Positions 25,000 through 41,382 of a stretch of 64,000 nt of DNA are shown in pieces. The stretch is from a virus (taxonomy: Duplodnaviria; Caudoviricetes), in IMG/VR virus record IMGVR_UViG_3300032295_003763, positions 135,928 to 199,927 of that record. One strand, 5' to 3'. The translations under genes and the position numbers were made by a program. Each line of letters opens with the position of its first letter. Position 1 is the stretch's first letter. Below the pieces are notes generated by a model. The model saw only the letters and a list, made by a program, of their open reading frames with translations. It was not told where the DNA came from and ran no database searches.

Positions 25000-25093
25000 T
25001 ATATATCACCTTTTTTCATGTGCATTGTAAATTATCACATTATTTTCTAATTAACAATAATTCTACCCTATTATTTTAAATGCTAGATATATA
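25000..25093. promoter_or_regulatory. Back-to-back late promoters: GATATATA on minus (25000-25007) and on plus (25086-25093)
   Basis: Each copy faces its divergent downstream gene. Confidence 0.7.
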
Positions 25094-32720: not shown

Positions 32721-33605
32721 TTATGCGGTATTTTTATCTGTATTTCCCATAAATAATGAGGACTCTCTCTCTCTTCTTCGTCTTAATCCCTTTTCATATT
32801 TTGTACCCAAATTAATCTTTTCTGTCTTCCATCGTAAAAATGCTTCTTTATATTTCTTTTGATTAATTAAACTAGCAGTCTCAGAACTTGCAAACCCATG
32901 TCCACCAGCATTATATGCAAATGCAACACAAGCAGCGTACATATTTAATGTCATAGGAACATGAATAGCTCCTTTAACAGCTTCCTCAAATCTTTGCAAA
33001 TCACTTTTATAGAGTTCTTCTGCCTTTTCTTGAGTAATCCTTTCCCCCATTTCGTATTGACTATTCAACATATGTCCATACCCAATAGCCCAATGTTTTA
33101 CATCCCAGAACGGTTCAAGTCTTGCTCTACCCTCAAGTCCTCTTATAAAATCTATAGCTTCATCTGTTAAATACCATTTATCCTTTTCAAGATAAACCCC
33201 CTTCATATCTTCCACAACTTCCTTTTTCTGCAAGTCTATAGACCAAGTTGATACAACTGAAAAATCTATATGTGGAAATATTTTTTCAAGTTCTTTAGCT
33301 AAAGAGTCTATTTTTACTATATCTTCTTTTCTTGTTACTATTTTTTCAGATATTTCTATGAAATTAATAGACTGTAATGTTGCAATACCACTAGTACCCC
33401 TTAAGTTATTTACATCTAAAGTTATTCTCACCTCATCATTTGCTTCCAGTATATGAGCACCGTCTTTTAATAGCTTTTGATCGATTGCCTGTACCATTAC
33501 ATCTGGAAATCCCTTTTGTAATAATTCTTCTAATAAATTAAAAGGTACAAATATCTTAATACGATTAGTTACATCTGGACTATTTTCTAGAATCAAAGAT
33601 TTCAT
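32721..33605 (-). CDS. GH24 phage lysozyme with ~140-aa N-terminal extension
   Basis: FIRGLEG..L..FWD..WAIGYGH, AFAYNAG, GLRRRRERE. Confidence 0.88.
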   Translation of the reverse strand: MKSLILENSPDVTNRIKIFVPFNLLEELLQKGFPDVMVQAIDQKLLKDGAHILEANDEVRITLDVNNLRGTSGIATLQSINFIEISEKIVTRKEDIVKIDSLAKELEKIFPHIDFSVVSTWSIDLQKKEVVEDMKGVYLEKDKWYLTDEAIDFIRGLEGRARLEPFWDVKHWAIGYGHMLNSQYEMGERITQEKAEELYKSDLQRFEEAVKGAIHVPMTLNMYAACVAFAYNAGGHGFASSETASLINQKKYKEAFLRWKTEKINLGTKYEKGLRRRRERESSLFMGNTDKNTA

Positions 33606-33624: not shown

Positions 33625-34356
33625 CTATATATTCAGAATTTTAGTTGAAAATTGAAAATGTTTATCCCATTCTTCTTTTATTCTACAAGGATATTGATAA
33701 TTATGACCCCATTTTCTTTCTTTATTGATTTGACTTAATCTTTTTTCATACAACTTTCGTCTTTCTTCTAATCTTTCAAGGCCGCCTATATTTTTACAAT
33801 GTAGTAATTTTAATGAAGGATATTTATCATATACTATAGCCCCAGATGGAAAACATGCATGGCAACCATGTTTGAATCCGATTTCTTCTATAAGACTTGG
33901 ATCAAAAATTGGTGTTTTGTCATACCATGTATCTCGCATTCCCTTTGTTATTTCAGTCCATATTGGTTTATTTGAATCAGGTAATGTTTCAGACCACATA
34001 GAAAATCCAGTTGTCTGAGGTATACTTATTCCCTTTCTTTTACATGATATTAAAAATGATTCTAAATCTGGGTGATAAATAAATTCATCTAGATCTAATA
34101 CACAAACCCAATCATAATCTCTGAATTCTTTCCAAGCATTATTTTTAATATCTAAATAAACATCGTCCCTAATTTCACCGTTTGTATCATAAACTCTTCT
34201 TTCTACCAAGGGATGTTCATCACATATTTTAGCAGTTTCATCATCAGATTGATTGTCATAGACAATAATTTTTTCGCAAAATTTTTCATAATGATTTAAA
34301 AATATTGGCATTAATGCTTGTTCATTCCAAGCAATTGTAATACATACCATCTTCAT
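33625..34356 (-). CDS. GT2-like glycosyltransferase
   Basis: IAWNE, YDNQSDDET, WVCVLDLDEF. Confidence 0.85.
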   Translation of the reverse strand: MKMVCITIAWNEQALMPIFLNHYEKFCEKIIVYDNQSDDETAKICDEHPLVERRVYDTNGEIRDDVYLDIKNNAWKEFRDYDWVCVLDLDEFIYHPDLESFLISCKRKGISIPQTTGFSMWSETLPDSNKPIWTEITKGMRDTWYDKTPIFDPSLIEEIGFKHGCHACFPSGAIVYDKYPSLKLLHCKNIGGLERLEERRKLYEKRLSQINKERKWGHNYQYPCRIKEEWDKHFQFSTKILNI

Positions 34357-34847
34357 GGTAATTTACCTGTATGTTTAAGAATTATGTATTCTACATATTC
34401 TTCAGAATCTTTTTGATCTCTAATTAAATTTTCCCAGCTTTCTTTAAAATAAAAAGGTACTGGATGAATTCCTATATTAATCCATAATCCAATACACATG
34501 TTTTCTTCTTCATCTTCTACACAATCACCGACACTATGACTTATATCTAAAGAAATAAGTGCTTCAAATATCAGTTCCATAGCTTTTGCTATTTCTTTAA
34601 ATGTTGCTTCTAAATCATCTCCAGCGAAATGTATAGTATCTATCACTGAAACTACATAATCATCTGGGTCTACTCCTTCATCTATTATAGCTTGTTCAGC
34701 AGTTTTTAAGTCTAATTCAAATTCTTCAACACCTAATAGATTAATTATAAGTGTTGGATTACCATCTTCATCTTCACTTTTAATATAAACACCTGACCCC
34801 CATTTATTATTAAAAGCTTCAATTATGTAATCTGAAACATCTATCAT
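34353..34847 (-). CDS. Highly acidic hypothetical protein with an internal two-fold repeat
   Basis: About 38 D/E versus about 10 K/R in 164 aa; ATG 34847 in TAATG overlap. Confidence 0.7.
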   Translation of the reverse strand: MIDVSDYIIEAFNNKWGSGVYIKSEDEDGNPTLIINLLGVEEFELDLKTAEQAIIDEGVDPDDYVVSVIDTIHFAGDDLEATFKEIAKAMELIFEALISLDISHSVGDCVEDEEENMCIGLWINIGIHPVPFYFKESWENLIRDQKDSEEYVEYIILKHTGKLP

Positions 34848-35545
34848 TATGTTCTCCAATTTAATGTATCCAAAACATTATTTCTATTATTAACATCATT
34901 TGATATGTGATAAACCCATTCAGTCTGATATTGTAAATTTTGTGGATACATATAGTTCCAGCATTCTTCAGAATATTCAAAAAATGTATCATTCATATCA
35001 GGCGATATACATCTTGCTGCATAATTAAACAGGGCTTGTTCATAAATTGCATTAAATCTATCATAATTCAATTCTGGCATAATACATCTTACCATATGAC
35101 ATAATCTTCTGAAAGTAGAAATATCAGCTAGCATAAAGCCTGTATTAAAATACATATCTGGTCTTTCTATTATATTCAACATTTGTTGTTGTTGATTAAT
35201 TCTTAAAAGATTATATGTATGTTGATTTAATGTATTTTGGTAATTACCTATTCTCTCATTACCATTTTGAACTGCCCTCAATTTATTAGGAACAATCAAA
35301 GTAAAAGGAGTCGGTGTGTCTTGTCTAATTATGCAATCAGCATCGAAAAATGCTACTTGATCATAATCCTTTACAATATGGTCAATATAAGCTTTTGTAA
35401 AGGTTATACCAAAAGAATCACCTAATATATTTTGATCGAATGAAATAAAATCAGCATCCCATCTTTTAGATGCTTCAATCATCGAATCTTTAGAGTTTTG
35501 ACTTTGGAAATCATTTATATCAATTGTTAAGACTACTCTTTTCAT
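34847..35545 (-). CDS. GT-A fold glycosyltransferase, GT8-like
   Basis: FFDAD, YFNTGFML, YEQALFN, WNY, VYH; ATG 35545 in ATGA overlap. Confidence 0.8.
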   Translation of the reverse strand: MKRVVLTIDINDFQSQNSKDSMIEASKRWDADFISFDQNILGDSFGITFTKAYIDHIVKDYDQVAFFDADCIIRQDTPTPFTLIVPNKLRAVQNGNERIGNYQNTLNQHTYNLLRINQQQQMLNIIERPDMYFNTGFMLADISTFRRLCHMVRCIMPELNYDRFNAIYEQALFNYAARCISPDMNDTFFEYSEECWNYMYPQNLQYQTEWVYHISNDVNNRNNVLDTLNWRT

Positions 35546-36270
35546 TTTGATCTCCAATCATAATCTTTTATGGTGTCTTTTATTTTCCAAAAGTTATATC
35601 CTGTAAAATGCCAGACATAACTATTCATTCTAGGTTCTTCAATAGGAGGCTCTAAATAATTCCAAGATTCATTTATAATAGTTAGATCATTCGGACGTAT
35701 TCCCTGAACAATATAATTAAATAAAGCTTGTTCATAATGTGCAGAAAAAGAAAATATCTCTCGACCATCTGTTAAGGGAAGTGCTTGAGATATAGCTTTA
35801 AAAATAGACTTATGCCTTTTGGTAGAACATAAGAAAAATCCTGAATTGAAGAATTTATCTAAAAAGATTTCTCTAGATATATTCCATCCAAATTGTTGTT
35901 CTAGTATATTATAATAATACTCTTGATTATTATTCTTTACATTAAACCACATCTCTTCATCCTTTTTATATCTTTGTGGATGAATGTCTAATGTAGCATA
36001 AAATTTATTTTCATCTGAAAAAACTTCAAAAGGATTAGGCGTATCAATATGAATCAGCATATCAGAATCAAAATATACAGCCCTTTCGTAACCTTCTATT
36101 TTTTCAAATGAACATATTTTAGCAAAAGATGGATATAATCTAGTGTCAAATATTGTTCGTATTTCTAAATAGTCACATCCCCATCTATCAGCAGCGTGAG
36201 AAATAGATTCTCTAGCATTAGATGACATGTGATTATTTATATTTACTGTCCAAACAAGATTCTTACTCAT
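35542..36270 (-). CDS. GT-A fold glycosyltransferase, GT8-like, paralog of 34847-35545
   Basis: YFDSD, DTPNPF, FFNSGFFL, YEQALFNY, WNY, VWHF. Confidence 0.8.
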   Translation of the reverse strand: MSKNLVWTVNINNHMSSNARESISHAADRWGCDYLEIRTIFDTRLYPSFAKICSFEKIEGYERAVYFDSDMLIHIDTPNPFEVFSDENKFYATLDIHPQRYKKDEEMWFNVKNNNQEYYYNILEQQFGWNISREIFLDKFFNSGFFLCSTKRHKSIFKAISQALPLTDGREIFSFSAHYEQALFNYIVQGIRPNDLTIINESWNYLEPPIEEPRMNSYVWHFTGYNFWKIKDTIKDYDWRSK

Positions 36271-36888
36271 TTAGATATGAACTCCAAGAACTTTTTCAAC
36301 TCTTACATGTCTAAACTCTTTTGAAAGAGCTTCATATGTATAACCATCAGAATAAAACCCTTGCTCTGCTACCCAACCTATCTTTTCAATAGCTTCTCTT
36401 TTTACAACAACTTGTAATGTATCTATACCACCAACAACTATCGGCCAACCTGTAAGAACTTGAGGCGGTTTACCTACCCACGCTTGAAGTGGACCCATAT
36501 GGAGAATCTGACATACAGCAAATCCTACATCTGAATCTGTACCTTCCAATGCACCTACCATCTCTTCAAGGAATTCTGGAAACATTACATTATCATCATC
36601 TAAGAATGCAATGTATTTCCCATTTAACATAGGCATAGCAAGTTTTCTTACCGATGCACCATAATCAGCATGATTCTCTTCTAATTCTATAAATTGTCTT
36701 TTAGGATCATCTTTTGATTTTACTGAAAAATATTCACGCAAAACTGGATCAGGTCCATCTGAAACAATAACATGTTCCCAATCTTGAAATGATTGCCAAT
36801 TAACACAAGCCATGCAACGATTCAGCATTTTTATCCCTCTATTCCAAGTGGGAGTTAAAACGCTTATTGTTGGGTTTTTCTTTTTCAT
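36271..36888 (-). CDS. GT2-family glycosyltransferase
   Basis: ISVLTPTWNR, WEHVIVSDG, YIAFLDDDN. Confidence 0.88.
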   Translation of the reverse strand: MKKKNPTISVLTPTWNRGIKMLNRCMACVNWQSFQDWEHVIVSDGPDPVLREYFSVKSKDDPKRQFIELEENHADYGASVRKLAMPMLNGKYIAFLDDDNVMFPEFLEEMVGALEGTDSDVGFAVCQILHMGPLQAWVGKPPQVLTGWPIVVGGIDTLQVVVKREAIEKIGWVAEQGFYSDGYTYEALSKEFRHVRVEKVLGVHI

Positions 36889-36924: not shown

Positions 36925-38235
36925 TTATTTAGTAAAGTTCAATCCGTTATCAATAAAAATTTTAGCAGTTTTATTAACATTACTCTGTTTTATAGATTTT
37001 AAAATTTCTCTACCTATTCTTTGTGCAACATTTACATTAGTAGCTCTGCCCATTAATATCCAGCTTGTTCGCCATCCCAGTGCAACTTTATATTCTTCAG
37101 GAAATCCTTGTAATCTACATAACTCTCTGGGAGAAAGTCTTCTTAAGAACTCATCATTTACCCTTTGTCCAGTTTCTAAAAATTCTGGAGCGTTTATTTC
37201 ATCATATATTAAATTCCTATCCCATCCTTGTCCACCAAATGAAATAGATTTAGATTCTCGTTCTGGATCTAAAATAATAGATGTATATTGATATCCCCTA
37301 TCAAGATTTTTCTTATTCATTTTATTTAAATAATCTAAATGAGTCTGAGTTAAGTAAAGATTTGGATTAGGATTATTTTCTAAAATATCCTTTAGCTTCC
37401 AAACTCTTTTTTCAGGTTTTGGCCAATTGAAAGTTAAAGCAGACAGTGGATTAGCAAATGCTACTATCCACACTCTTTTTCTTAATTGCGGTACTCCATA
37501 ATCAAGTGCATTAAGAAATGATGGGTTTACTACATAGTATCCAGTTTCTTCTTTTAATGTACGACAAGCAACTGCTGTAGAAACCTCTAAAGATTCATCT
37601 CTTTGAGTTTTTCTACATTCTATCATTATTGCTTCTGGTTGTAGTTTATTTATTAATTGTAATAAAAGATACCAGTTAGTATCTGTCATCTTATCAGCCT
37701 TAGGCTTAATACCTTTGTTCAAAGGTAAAGATTCAATATTAACTGAAGACGTTAGTACATCTACTTTGGGGAAATTACCATGATAATTATCTATATTAGT
37801 AAAAGGTATGACACCAAAATTTGAATAGTATGATTTTATAAAACTAGTATGCTCATATTTATCTTCAAATGCAAATGTACACGCTCCACCCTCTTTCATT
37901 AAAGCTACCGTAGCTCCACCAGAATTACAAAATATATCAGCAAACTTGAAATTAAAATGTTCAGGAGGAGGAATAGGTATATCATAATCTATTAAAGTTT
38001 TATCTTTAATACATTCATTCAATATCCTTTTGAAACTTGTACTGATTTTTGATCTTTTTATTATTTGTATAATGTCATCAAAATACAATACTTCCTCATT
38101 AGATATAGCTCTTGAAAATAAATGGGTTATTGCAGAAGCATGAGATGTGTATCTTTTACGAGTTCCTCTAGAAAATTTTTCTATATCTGGAATTTTCCAT
38201 TTTAAATCTTCAAAGATTTTTTTCAAGGAATACAT
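36925..38235 (-). CDS. C5-cytosine DNA methyltransferase homolog, predicted inactive
   Basis: Motifs VIII (YGVPQLRKR) and IX (RLSPRELCRLQGFP) intact; motifs I, IV (PC), VI (ENV) and X (GN) substituted. Confidence 0.85.
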   Translation of the reverse strand: MYSLKKIFEDLKWKIPDIEKFSRGTRKRYTSHASAITHLFSRAISNEEVLYFDDIIQIIKRSKISTSFKRILNECIKDKTLIDYDIPIPPPEHFNFKFADIFCNSGGATVALMKEGGACTFAFEDKYEHTSFIKSYYSNFGVIPFTNIDNYHGNFPKVDVLTSSVNIESLPLNKGIKPKADKMTDTNWYLLLQLINKLQPEAIMIECRKTQRDESLEVSTAVACRTLKEETGYYVVNPSFLNALDYGVPQLRKRVWIVAFANPLSALTFNWPKPEKRVWKLKDILENNPNPNLYLTQTHLDYLNKMNKKNLDRGYQYTSIILDPERESKSISFGGQGWDRNLIYDEINAPEFLETGQRVNDEFLRRLSPRELCRLQGFPEEYKVALGWRTSWILMGRATNVNVAQRIGREILKSIKQSNVNKTAKIFIDNGLNFTK

Positions 38236-38514
38236 TTACCACCTTGGCTCAGATAGGGGACATTTTGTTAATGTTAATCTAGCTTTAGCTTTAATAAAAC
38301 AACCACAAGCCATACAACGCTCTTTTACAGGGTCTCTATAATTACATGATCTACAAATTTCAACTCTTTGTAAATATAATGGATCTGTATCTGATAGTAT
38401 ATGAGATTGATGCTTGGGTTCAGATACCGTATTAGTTACTGTCTGTGTAGTTTCTGATAATTTAGTTGTAGTCTTAATTATATTTTCTTTTGATTTATTA
38501 CAACCACATCCCAT
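38236..38514 (-). CDS. Small Cys-rich, probably Zn-binding protein
   Basis: MGCGC start; R..IC..C, C..CGCFI..K, CP...W. Confidence 0.75.
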   Translation of the reverse strand: MGCGCNKSKENIIKTTTKLSETTQTVTNTVSEPKHQSHILSDTDPLYLQRVEICRSCNYRDPVKERCMACGCFIKAKARLTLTKCPLSEPRW

Positions 38515-38541: not shown

Positions 38542-39807
38542 TTATAAAACTAACCAACGACCTTGAGCACCTGCGGTTGAAGACGAATATACAACTTTTA
38601 CTGCTGCATATGGATTTATTTCTAGATCAGAACCACTTTGAGTCATTATTCTTCTCGATGTTGCTCCAGCAGTTAGAGAATTATTTCTAACAAACATAGA
38701 ATATGCTGTTTCATTAGAAATTATAATGTCTCGTCCATCTGTATTATCTGCAATACCAACCAGAGAAAAAGATGATGTAGGATTACCTCCAATTTTAGCA
38801 AATGATGTATCAGCATTAAGTGTCAGTTCTAAAGCAGTTGAATCATTTTTTGTTATATTTTGATTTACCTTTGGACAATCACAAGGTCCTTGAGGTCCTT
38901 GGACTCCCTGAAAACCTTGTGTACCTTGATCCCCTTGAGGTCCATCTGGCCCTTGATAACCTTGAAAACCTCTAGGTCCAGTTGGACCTTGTTCACCAGT
39001 CGCACCTTGAACTCCCTGTGTACCTTGAGGTCCTTGAGGTCCTTGTGGACCTTGGTTTCCTTGATTACCTCCACCTTGATTACCCTGATTACCCTGTTGT
39101 CCTTGACGACCCTGATTACCTTGAGGTCCAATAATTCCTTGAACACCTTGTAATCCTTGAGATCCTTGAATTCCTTGAACACCCTGAATACCTTGATTCC
39201 CTTGAGGTCCATTCAAACCTTGAGGTCCCGTTCTACCTTGAAAACCTTGTCCTCCAGTTATACTAGCAGGGTATCCTTTTTCTCCTTCATATTTATATGC
39301 AGTAACCGCACATGGATTAGATATAGAAACGCCTTCTGGTAATCCATTAAAAAATGTAATGACACCTGAATTATAATTAAAAATCCAATCATTTTGTCCC
39401 AATGGGATAGGTAACCATGTTGATGTACCTATATCGTATTTCCAAACTTTTGCTTGATAATCTACTCCAAACAAACTAGGAGGAATACAATCTTTCAAAT
39501 CACCAGTAGAATCATAAAACGCATTATCACTACCTTCATCAAATGTTAAAGCATATTTATGATATTTGGTAAATATTAGATCTCCTGAATCAGAATATGT
39601 TGTACCATCTGGGACAGCATCAGATTTATGAGGATTAGTTGCAGGTATTCTATCAGAATCTATCCAAAGCTGATTTGGATTAATTGGCATTACTTCTGAA
39701 AATGATTCTTCAAAATGCTCAAGACTTATATTTGTTGTAGCTTTATTAGCTTCAACTATATTATAGGTTACATGACTTTTTTGATTAGGGGTTAATCCAG
39801 TACTCAT
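38542..39807 (-). CDS. Collagen-like virion protein with a central ~125-aa triple-helix region
   Basis: G-X-Q repeats ending QGPCDCPK, globular domains on both sides. Confidence 0.85.
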   Translation of the reverse strand: MSTGLTPNQKSHVTYNIVEANKATTNISLEHFEESFSEVMPINPNQLWIDSDRIPATNPHKSDAVPDGTTYSDSGDLIFTKYHKYALTFDEGSDNAFYDSTGDLKDCIPPSLFGVDYQAKVWKYDIGTSTWLPIPLGQNDWIFNYNSGVITFFNGLPEGVSISNPCAVTAYKYEGEKGYPASITGGQGFQGRTGPQGLNGPQGNQGIQGVQGIQGSQGLQGVQGIIGPQGNQGRQGQQGNQGNQGGGNQGNQGPQGPQGPQGTQGVQGATGEQGPTGPRGFQGYQGPDGPQGDQGTQGFQGVQGPQGPCDCPKVNQNITKNDSTALELTLNADTSFAKIGGNPTSSFSLVGIADNTDGRDIIISNETAYSMFVRNNSLTAGATSRRIMTQSGSDLEINPYAAVKVVYSSSTAGAQGRWLVL

Positions 39808-41331: not shown

Positions 41332-41339
41332 TATATATC
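41332..41339 (-). promoter_or_regulatory. Putative late promoter GATATATA
   Basis: Exact motif upstream of 41304. Confidence 0.7.
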
Positions 41340-41341
41340 TT

Positions 41342-41382
41342 AAAAAAAACGAAAGCCACCATACTTTTAGGTATGATGGCTT
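41342..41382 (-). terminator. Possible terminator hairpin
   Basis: aagccaccatac-ttttag-gtatgatggctt with downstream U-tract on minus. Confidence 0.5.

Follow-up and report, generated by a model that had tools for sequence, protein, structure and literature searches.

M.HpaII-type cytosine-5 (C5) DNA methyltransferases are classically encoded in the gene arrangement Vsr, methylase and R.HpaII. Laboratory mutants of M.HhaI and M.EcoRII that have no catalytic cysteine retain specific binding to their site and can be toxic, and binding reportedly even becomes tighter when this cysteine is replaced (Wyszynski et al. 1992; Mi and Roberts 1993). In eukaryotes, pseudoenzymes derived from DNA methyltransferases are well known, with DNMT3L, an inactive paralogue of DNMT3A/B without a DNA-recognition region, binding an active DNMT3 partner. 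Phage C5-methyltransferases encoded in TET clusters are inactive as well; they keep the catalytic cysteine, whereas motifs VIII-X are missing or disrupted in them (Burke et al. 2021; PMC8256090). The gene analysed here encodes the converse of these proteins, although both are phage-encoded C5-methyltransferase homologues. It lies in a 64-kb window (the whole stretch of DNA analysed), which is the last part of a 199,927-base IMG/VR virus record with an estimated completeness of about 52%, and its open reading frame (ORF) is unbroken over 436 amino acids (aa), as a sequence-only reading had stated. As judged from alignment, the product is descended from an HpaII-type (CCGG) C5 DNA methyltransferase with the fold and the DNA- and base-gripping parts kept; it has no nucleophile and has lost most contacts to S-adenosylmethionine (AdoMet), so it is predicted to be unable to methylate. 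The gene is nevertheless kept under strong purifying selection. The features of this pseudo-methyltransferase that concern its fold and chemistry are as follows.

36925..38235, minus strand: pseudo-methyltransferase ORF P0001, 436 aa, stop codon included (ORF call, Pfam, M.HhaI alignment, AlphaFold2)
36997..37950, minus strand: core of C5-methyltransferase fold, residues 96-413 (PF00145; aligns to M.HhaI residues 10-321)
37915..37932, minus strand: altered motif I, F-C-N-S-G-G, residues 102-107 (FAGLGG to FCNSGG)
37732..37749, minus strand: former motif IV, S-S-V-N-I-E, residues 163-168 (GFPCQ to SVNIE)
36928..36996, minus strand: family-specific C-terminal extension INKxAKxLIxxGLNF, absent from the active relatives in the alignment

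With M.HpaII-type methyltransferases the protein shares its fold, the order of its motifs and the type of its recognition region, and some members of that group also carry the extra N-terminal domain. It differs from them in having no Pro-Cys and no Asn-Val, an Asn in motif I, Arg or Met in motif X, and an added C-terminal helix and tail; unlike in M.HpaII-type operons, restriction enzyme and Vsr genes are not nearby, and the gene sits in a phage structural operon. Similar to the laboratory cysteine-less mutants, the family has lost the nucleophile and kept the parts that recognise DNA, but it is a natural and conserved family in which AdoMet contacts are also lost. DNMT3L is likewise a C5-methyltransferase fold that was selected for after loss of its catalytic motifs, whereas the pseudo-methyltransferase keeps a recognition region and a cytosine pocket, and no active partner was found for it in the 200 kb of the record (about 52% of the genome). 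Our literature searches found no description of a conserved cysteine-less C5-methyltransferase pseudoenzyme family in phages or bacteria, only the converse case of Burke et al. 2021.

Membership in the C5 cytosine DNA methyltransferase superfamily is given by a full profile match and a two-lobed fold. The whole profile of the Pfam family PF00145 (DNA_methylase; positions 1-324 of 324) is matched by residues 96-413 (E=5.5e-35), and M.HhaI is matched by sequence at E=2e-21. An AlphaFold2 model built on 25 sequences reached a predicted local distance difference test score (pLDDT) of 89 and a predicted template modelling score (pTM) of 0.90, and its best Foldseek matches were structures of M.HhaI (E=3e-19, probability 1.00).

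Reading the motifs residue by residue from the alignment to M.HhaI allowed us to separate what was lost from what was kept. In motif I the first Gly alone is lost and the GG pair remains, with Asn104 standing where all of 146 active homologues have a Gly. In motif IV the position of the catalytic Cys is taken by Ile167 and that of the Pro by Asn166. Motif VI reads ECR in place of ENV, where the Glu (E206) is retained and invariant in the family and the Asn-Val pair is variable, and motif X reads GRAT in place of GNSV, with its Asn lost. The sequence-only reading had all of the chemistry motifs replaced, which is correct for motifs IV and X, while motifs I and VI are replaced only in part. Its statement that motifs VIII and IX are kept was confirmed by the same alignment: motif VIII is QLRKR against QKRER in M.HhaI, with Q250, R252 and R254 invariant in the family, and motif IX is RRLSPRE...GFP against RKLHPRE...GYP, with the family form RRL(S/T)xRE..LQGFP. 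The enzymatic features that fail in the sequence are thus the Pro-Cys of motif IV, the AdoMet-binding motifs I, II, III and X, and the Asn-Val of motif VI.

These replacements are common to all aligned members of a distinct family. A word-indexed search returned approximately 25 clusters, about 436 aa in length and with 40-74% identity, after which identity falls to 32% and the matches are active methylases of the ordinary kind; no further distant family members came from an exhaustive profile search of 1.8 billion representatives. In the tree the family is a single clade (support 100/100), and its stem is long, at 1.4 substitutions per site. Its motif I is FxDIFCNxGGAT, motif IV is S-S-[VLI]-[DN]-[ITLF], motif VI is IE followed by variable residues, and motif X is [GA][RM]ATNV. 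The Cys position of motif IV is I, T, L or F in 17 of 17 aligned members, and the Pro position is D or N, or A in the homologue P0025. Residue conservation in the dead family was compared with that in the 146 active homologues. Positions that are 96-100% conserved in the active set, namely the Asp of motif III, the Gln of motif IV and the Asn-Val of motif VI, are variable in the dead family, in which new residues are fixed elsewhere (Gly to Asn104, Gly to Ser164, Val to Thr399). The motif III Asp is lost, the hydrophobic residue after the acid of motif II has given way to polar residues, and the motif X Asn has become Arg or Met. Shared with the active enzymes are E206, Q250, R252, R254, motif IX and the recognition-region residues G335, G337, N341, N360 and R365.

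The gene was found at every locus that spans its slot in a group of T4-like freshwater phages, and none of the 23 aligned full-length homologues (40-74% identity) is broken. Against the relative L042 (92% identical) we counted 80.5 synonymous and 38.5 non-synonymous differences, which gives a non-synonymous divergence (dN) of 0.038, a synonymous divergence (dS) of 0.38 and a dN/dS of 0.099; neighbouring genes in the same pair have similar values of 0.03-0.22. Two other moderately diverged pairs gave 0.11 and 0.145 for the pseudo-methyltransferase. The proposal of a protein that is dead but functional holds up on these data, as the replacements are family-wide, dN/dS is 0.10 at unsaturated divergence, and there are neither signs of relaxed selection nor frameshifts. 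A decaying relic, left over from a methylase that became useless once CCGG had been purged, would explain the loss of the chemistry motifs and a divergence between distant clades that is faster than that of some neighbours (44-56% versus 64-87% identity). Against decay stand the dN/dS of about 0.10, the lack of a frameshift or stop in any homologue, the identical replacements across clades that are saturated at synonymous sites, and the presence of the gene in clades that still have CCGG. The low dN/dS, the unbroken homologues and the occurrence at every spanning locus together lead us to reject the relic, which we regard as extremely improbable.

One could also ask whether the enzyme remains active by way of a non-canonical nucleophile, since neither Cys103 (in motif I) nor Cys119 varies within the family. 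However, Cys119 is also conserved in active enzymes, and a Cys at position 103 occurs in active enzymes too (FCGIGG in P0141 and P0168), where Ala predominates. The Cys of ECR was considered as a migrated nucleophile and ruled out, because that position is C, S or I in the family. With the contacts in four AdoMet-binding motifs also lost or relaxed, we consider an active enzyme very improbable.

The ancestry of the family is best seen through its nearest active relative, P0027 (32% identity, E=1e-45), the gene of which is flanked by genes for Vsr and RE_HpaII in an assembly from Bacteroidota. Two further parts of the protein bear on this comparison.

37141..37398, minus strand: HpaII-type target-recognition region (GGQGWDRNLIYD...), approximately residues 280-365 (alignment to P0027)
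37951..38235, minus strand: N-terminal helical domain, residues 1-95, with a conserved TH(L/Y) motif (H38) (alignment)

Taken alone, the recognition region aligns to that of P0027 at 34% identity (E=6e-13) with 3 gap positions in two places. This alignment and the RE_HpaII gene adjoining P0027 bear out the earlier assignment of an HpaII-like target-recognition region. The N-terminal domain with its TH motif is also present in the active homologues P0027, P0028, P0030, P0032 and P0037; active homologues such as P0027, P0030, P0032 and P0037 are cellular, so the domain was inherited and is not a leader added by the phage. Modelled alone it reached a pLDDT of 75, and its best structural match (Z 4.0) was not meaningful. 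Neither R.HpaII nor a DNA methylase of any class (a second PF00145 protein, N6/N4 or Dam-type) was found in the 200-kb record.

The phage was correctly described as lacking CCGG, with 0 sites in 199,927 bases where 59.6 are expected from the counts of CCG, CGG and CG, or 117 from base composition; CCGG is the only tetramer fully purged from the record. Loci in clade A (the window, L031, L042, L046), clade B (L002-L004, L027, L028) and clade D (L005, L034) are equally free of it. The same gene is found together with CCGG in clade C (L033, L036, L037) and in the earliest-branching clade E (L038), with 39, 21, 15 and 13 sites in 4-19 kb, at or above expectation. The earlier suggestion that the phage spares itself through loss of CCGG does not generalise, as two of the five clades that carry the gene have the site. 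Gene presence is independent of whether the phage has CCGG.

We also considered whether CCGG in clade C is selected for as a binding site. Among 136 tetramers, CCGG shows the strongest over-representation in L033 and L036. In clade C, 6 of 18 CCGG sites are shared at 81% DNA identity, a positional conservation not beyond chance, and the clade avoids CCWGG (0, 0 and 1 sites), writing Pro-Gly-type codon pairs as CCSGG, whereas the CCGG-free clades use CCWGG. Selection for binding sites was rejected on these grounds, and the enrichment is a by-product of CCWGG avoidance. Close relatives purge different short palindromes by lineage, with the synonymous codon swaps visible at orthologous Pro-Gly positions. 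For example, L005 has 2 GATC sites (72.9 expected) and 0 CTAG sites (45.3 expected), and L036 has 0 CTAG sites (21.4 expected) and 0 AGCT sites (22.1 expected). The simplest reading of palindrome loss is ordinary host-dependent avoidance of restriction sites by phages with unmodified DNA, and these relatives offer a clean natural series for studies of restriction avoidance.

What the protein does can be approached from the residues that selection has kept. Our leading proposal, to which we give about even credence, is that it could be a non-catalytic, site-specific, base-flipping DNA binder derived from an HpaII-type methylase and acting stoichiometrically. A cytosine would be flipped into the retained Glu/Arg pocket and the protein would stay bound, as the laboratory C5 methylase mutants without cysteine do. 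Should the protein still be specific for CCGG, as its ancestor was, its target would be host DNA (or other foreign DNA), because three clades have no CCGG of their own and such DNA is then the only substrate common to all five. Binding might act as a roadblock, shield or mark the site, or recruit another factor. A non-catalytic DNA binder fits a protein in which the nucleophile and the AdoMet contacts are gone while the cytosine grip and recognition region persist under purifying selection. Several points weigh against this proposal. Positions of the catalytic loop that are conserved in active enzymes are altered, with the Ser at 171 changed to Pro and the Arg at 184 variable. With only 34% identity between the recognition region and the HpaII type, the preferred site may have changed. 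The phages of clades C and E themselves carry 1-3 CCGG per kb, which means either that binding there is not harmful or that the site is no longer CCGG. Finally, motifs I and X appear to have been re-made with new invariant polar residues and do not look as if they were drifting, which could point to a new ligand or a new chemistry.

This last point underlies the possibility that the pocket was re-lined for a new function, such as reading a modified cytosine (e.g. host 5-methyl-CCGG) or a Cys-independent reaction (glycosylase-like cleavage). Asn104, Ser164, Asp/Asn166, Thr399 and Asn400 are the invariant residues that now line what was the cofactor and catalytic pocket. Few blocks of the family are as conserved as motifs I and X, though both are off the AdoMet-binding consensus, and the stem, 1.4 substitutions per site long, suggests rapid early change that later came under constraint. 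The same blocks are, however, part of the structural core of the fold and may be conserved for that reason; the Asp/Asn position is not fixed (D, N, or A in P0025), and the residue pattern of a known glycosylase or deaminase was not identified. We judge a re-lined pocket to be rather improbable.

Dead domains of this kind are not confined to the phage family. In the exhaustive search, independent HpaII-like domains without the Cys were seen fused to an N-terminal Vsr mismatch endonuclease (P0131 at L040:1155-2633, and P0156) and to HTH_3 (P0171), and this suggests that dead C5-methylase domains may be reused as DNA-recognition modules, a precedent that favours the proposed DNA binder. The Vsr fusions P0131 and P0156 resemble the phage family in being HpaII-like, in having no catalytic Cys and in their altered ENV, and P0131 also shares the ‘RAT’ of motif X. 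They differ in their fused mismatch endonuclease, their intact motif I, their location on non-phage contigs and their independent loss of the Cys. P0192 is a stand-alone HpaII-like variant, Cys to Ser, outside the phage family.

The gene belongs to a T4-like jumbo phage. Encoded around it are the major capsid protein (Gp23-type), the prohead protease (Peptidase_S77, gp21-type), the large terminase, a lysozyme and a fibre with collagen repeats; the relatives come from freshwater metagenomes. The gene is part of a co-directional string in the order 331-aa ORF, 142-aa ORF, collagen fibre, DUF6171, pseudo-methyltransferase, glycosyltransferase block with a 168-aa ORF, lysozyme, prohead protease and capsid.

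41353-41382, minus strand: terminator-like hairpin with a 12-bp stem, just upstream of the GATATATA copy (hairpin scan)
41332..41339, minus strand: GATATATA promoter-like motif heading the gene string that holds the pseudo-methyltransferase (motif count)
38542..39807, minus strand: collagen-repeat tail-fibre-like protein (Pfam, neighbourhood annotation)
38236..38514, minus strand: Cys-rich DUF6171 protein, 92 aa, directly upstream of the pseudo-methyltransferase (Pfam)
38239..38245, minus strand: Shine-Dalgarno-like AAGGTGG, 3 nucleotides before the ATG of the pseudo-methyltransferase
33625..36888, minus strand: four glycosyltransferase-like genes and the 168-aa ORF, downstream of the pseudo-methyltransferase (Pfam; syntenic in all relatives examined)

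The GATATATA motif occurs 16 times in the window against 7.2 expected, 20-40 nucleotides upstream of many ORFs (another copy lies, for example, at 25086-25093 on the plus strand), a pattern consistent with a phage promoter element. Between the pseudo-methyltransferase and its neighbours, neither this motif nor a convincing terminator was found. The stop codon of the DUF6171 gene abuts the pseudo-methyltransferase start (TAAATG). The DUF6171 gene follows the collagen-like fibre gene, and the N-terminus of its product is MGCGC. We considered DUF6171 as a functional partner, as the two genes are abutted in all loci, but in Synechococcus phage S-SRM01 the homologue follows tail-fibre genes (of gp37/gp38 type) without a methylase nearby. 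DUF6171 therefore probably belongs to the fibre module and not with the methyltransferase-like gene, and is possibly a fibre assembly or accessory factor.

The four glycosyltransferase-like genes (GT2, two weak GT8-like, and GT2_4) sit between the pseudo-methyltransferase and the lysozyme, protease and capsid genes. The block is highly conserved, with 64-87% identity across clades, and homologues sought in phages gave generic matches only. The collagen-like fibre or the capsid is the likely substrate of these putative enzymes. A DNA hypermodification cluster of methylase and glycosyltransferases was considered and rejected: no thymidylate-synthase or deoxycytidylate (dCMP)-hydroxymethylase homologue was found in the 200 kb, and the palindrome avoidance argues for unmodified DNA. 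A TET/JBP search of the 200 kb gave no match, but as the same search matched no control genome either, it is uninformative. Further along the string, the lysozyme gene (32721-33605, minus strand) has 74% aa identity to its L042 counterpart with a dS of 1.15, where the flanking genes have 91-98% aa identity and a dS of approximately 0.4, which suggests that it was replaced by recombination between close relatives.

This invariant neighbourhood with four glycosyltransferase-like genes could be attributed to a role away from DNA, either as a scaffold or accessory of the glycosyltransferase and fibre module or as a DNMT3L-like partner or inhibitor of an active phage or host methylase. The family-specific C-terminal helix and GLNF tail resemble a protein-binding peptide, and since the record covers only about 52% of the genome, an active methylase could sit in the remainder. 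The whole block is, however, syntenic within one phage group, and adjacency to the glycosyltransferase genes is thus not independent evidence. In addition, the cytosine-pocket Glu, the Arg-x-Arg and the recognition-region residues are kept, which a pure scaffold would not need, and no second methylase of the classes named above was found in the 200 kb. We think a role away from DNA quite unlikely. No other ORF clearly carries a C-terminal GLNF tail, as the sole other match of the scan, ...ISFEYLN, bears no real resemblance. A connection of the tail to a sliding clamp was also considered; the gp45 profile matched nothing in the record, but the control search also matched nothing.

The position of the gene in the structural string also bears on the suggestion that the protein is packaged in the virion. 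It would be a late product that enters the head by means of an N-terminal tag, is injected with the DNA, and then acts immediately on host CCGG DNA or on host HpaII-type restriction-modification proteins. The gene lies between fibre and head genes, downstream of GATATATA with no terminator between, and a host-DNA-targeting protein that is made together with structural proteins would be most useful when delivered. The N-terminus models as a short amphipathic helix, and the copy in the window has an [LI]xE-type prohead-protease site, IFE, ending at residue 9. Set against this, the sequence-only reading's capsid-targeting tag, MYSLKKIFE, is not supported as a general feature of the family: a Glu or any [LIV]xE is present there in only 4 of 23 homologues, and the domain is common to active cellular enzymes. 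The domain is also modelled as packed onto the protein, with residues 1-10 placed within it at a pLDDT of 90. Glycosyltransferase genes, whose products are not expected in the virion, stand in this string as well, so gene position, though compatible with a virion protein, is by itself weak evidence for packaging. Delivery with the virion is accordingly doubtful, and the decoy and anti-restriction roles proposed with it are pure inference.

That a dead HpaII-type methylase is kept at a dN/dS of about 0.1 implies that the base-flipping fold does something useful without catalysis, and this activity could be a new phage route to reading or obstructing DNA at short sites. The pseudo-methyltransferase would then be a compact natural scaffold for sequence-specific DNA recognition. 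A bolder and unlikely possibility is a natural programmable-reader module, a base-flipping and site-specific binder with which phages might, without methylating, mark, block or damage host DNA or read host 5-methyl-CCGG, the pocket having been rebuilt for a new ligand or a Cys-independent reaction. If this were true, the family would form, together with the fusions of Vsr to dead methylases, a wider and unrecognised class of pseudo-C5-methyltransferases that serve as DNA-targeting domains. As the defining enzymatic features have failed, the family should not be annotated as methyltransferase; the automatic label ‘DNA (cytosine-5)-methyltransferase’ on its homologues is wrong for function and would mislead methylome predictions for such phages.

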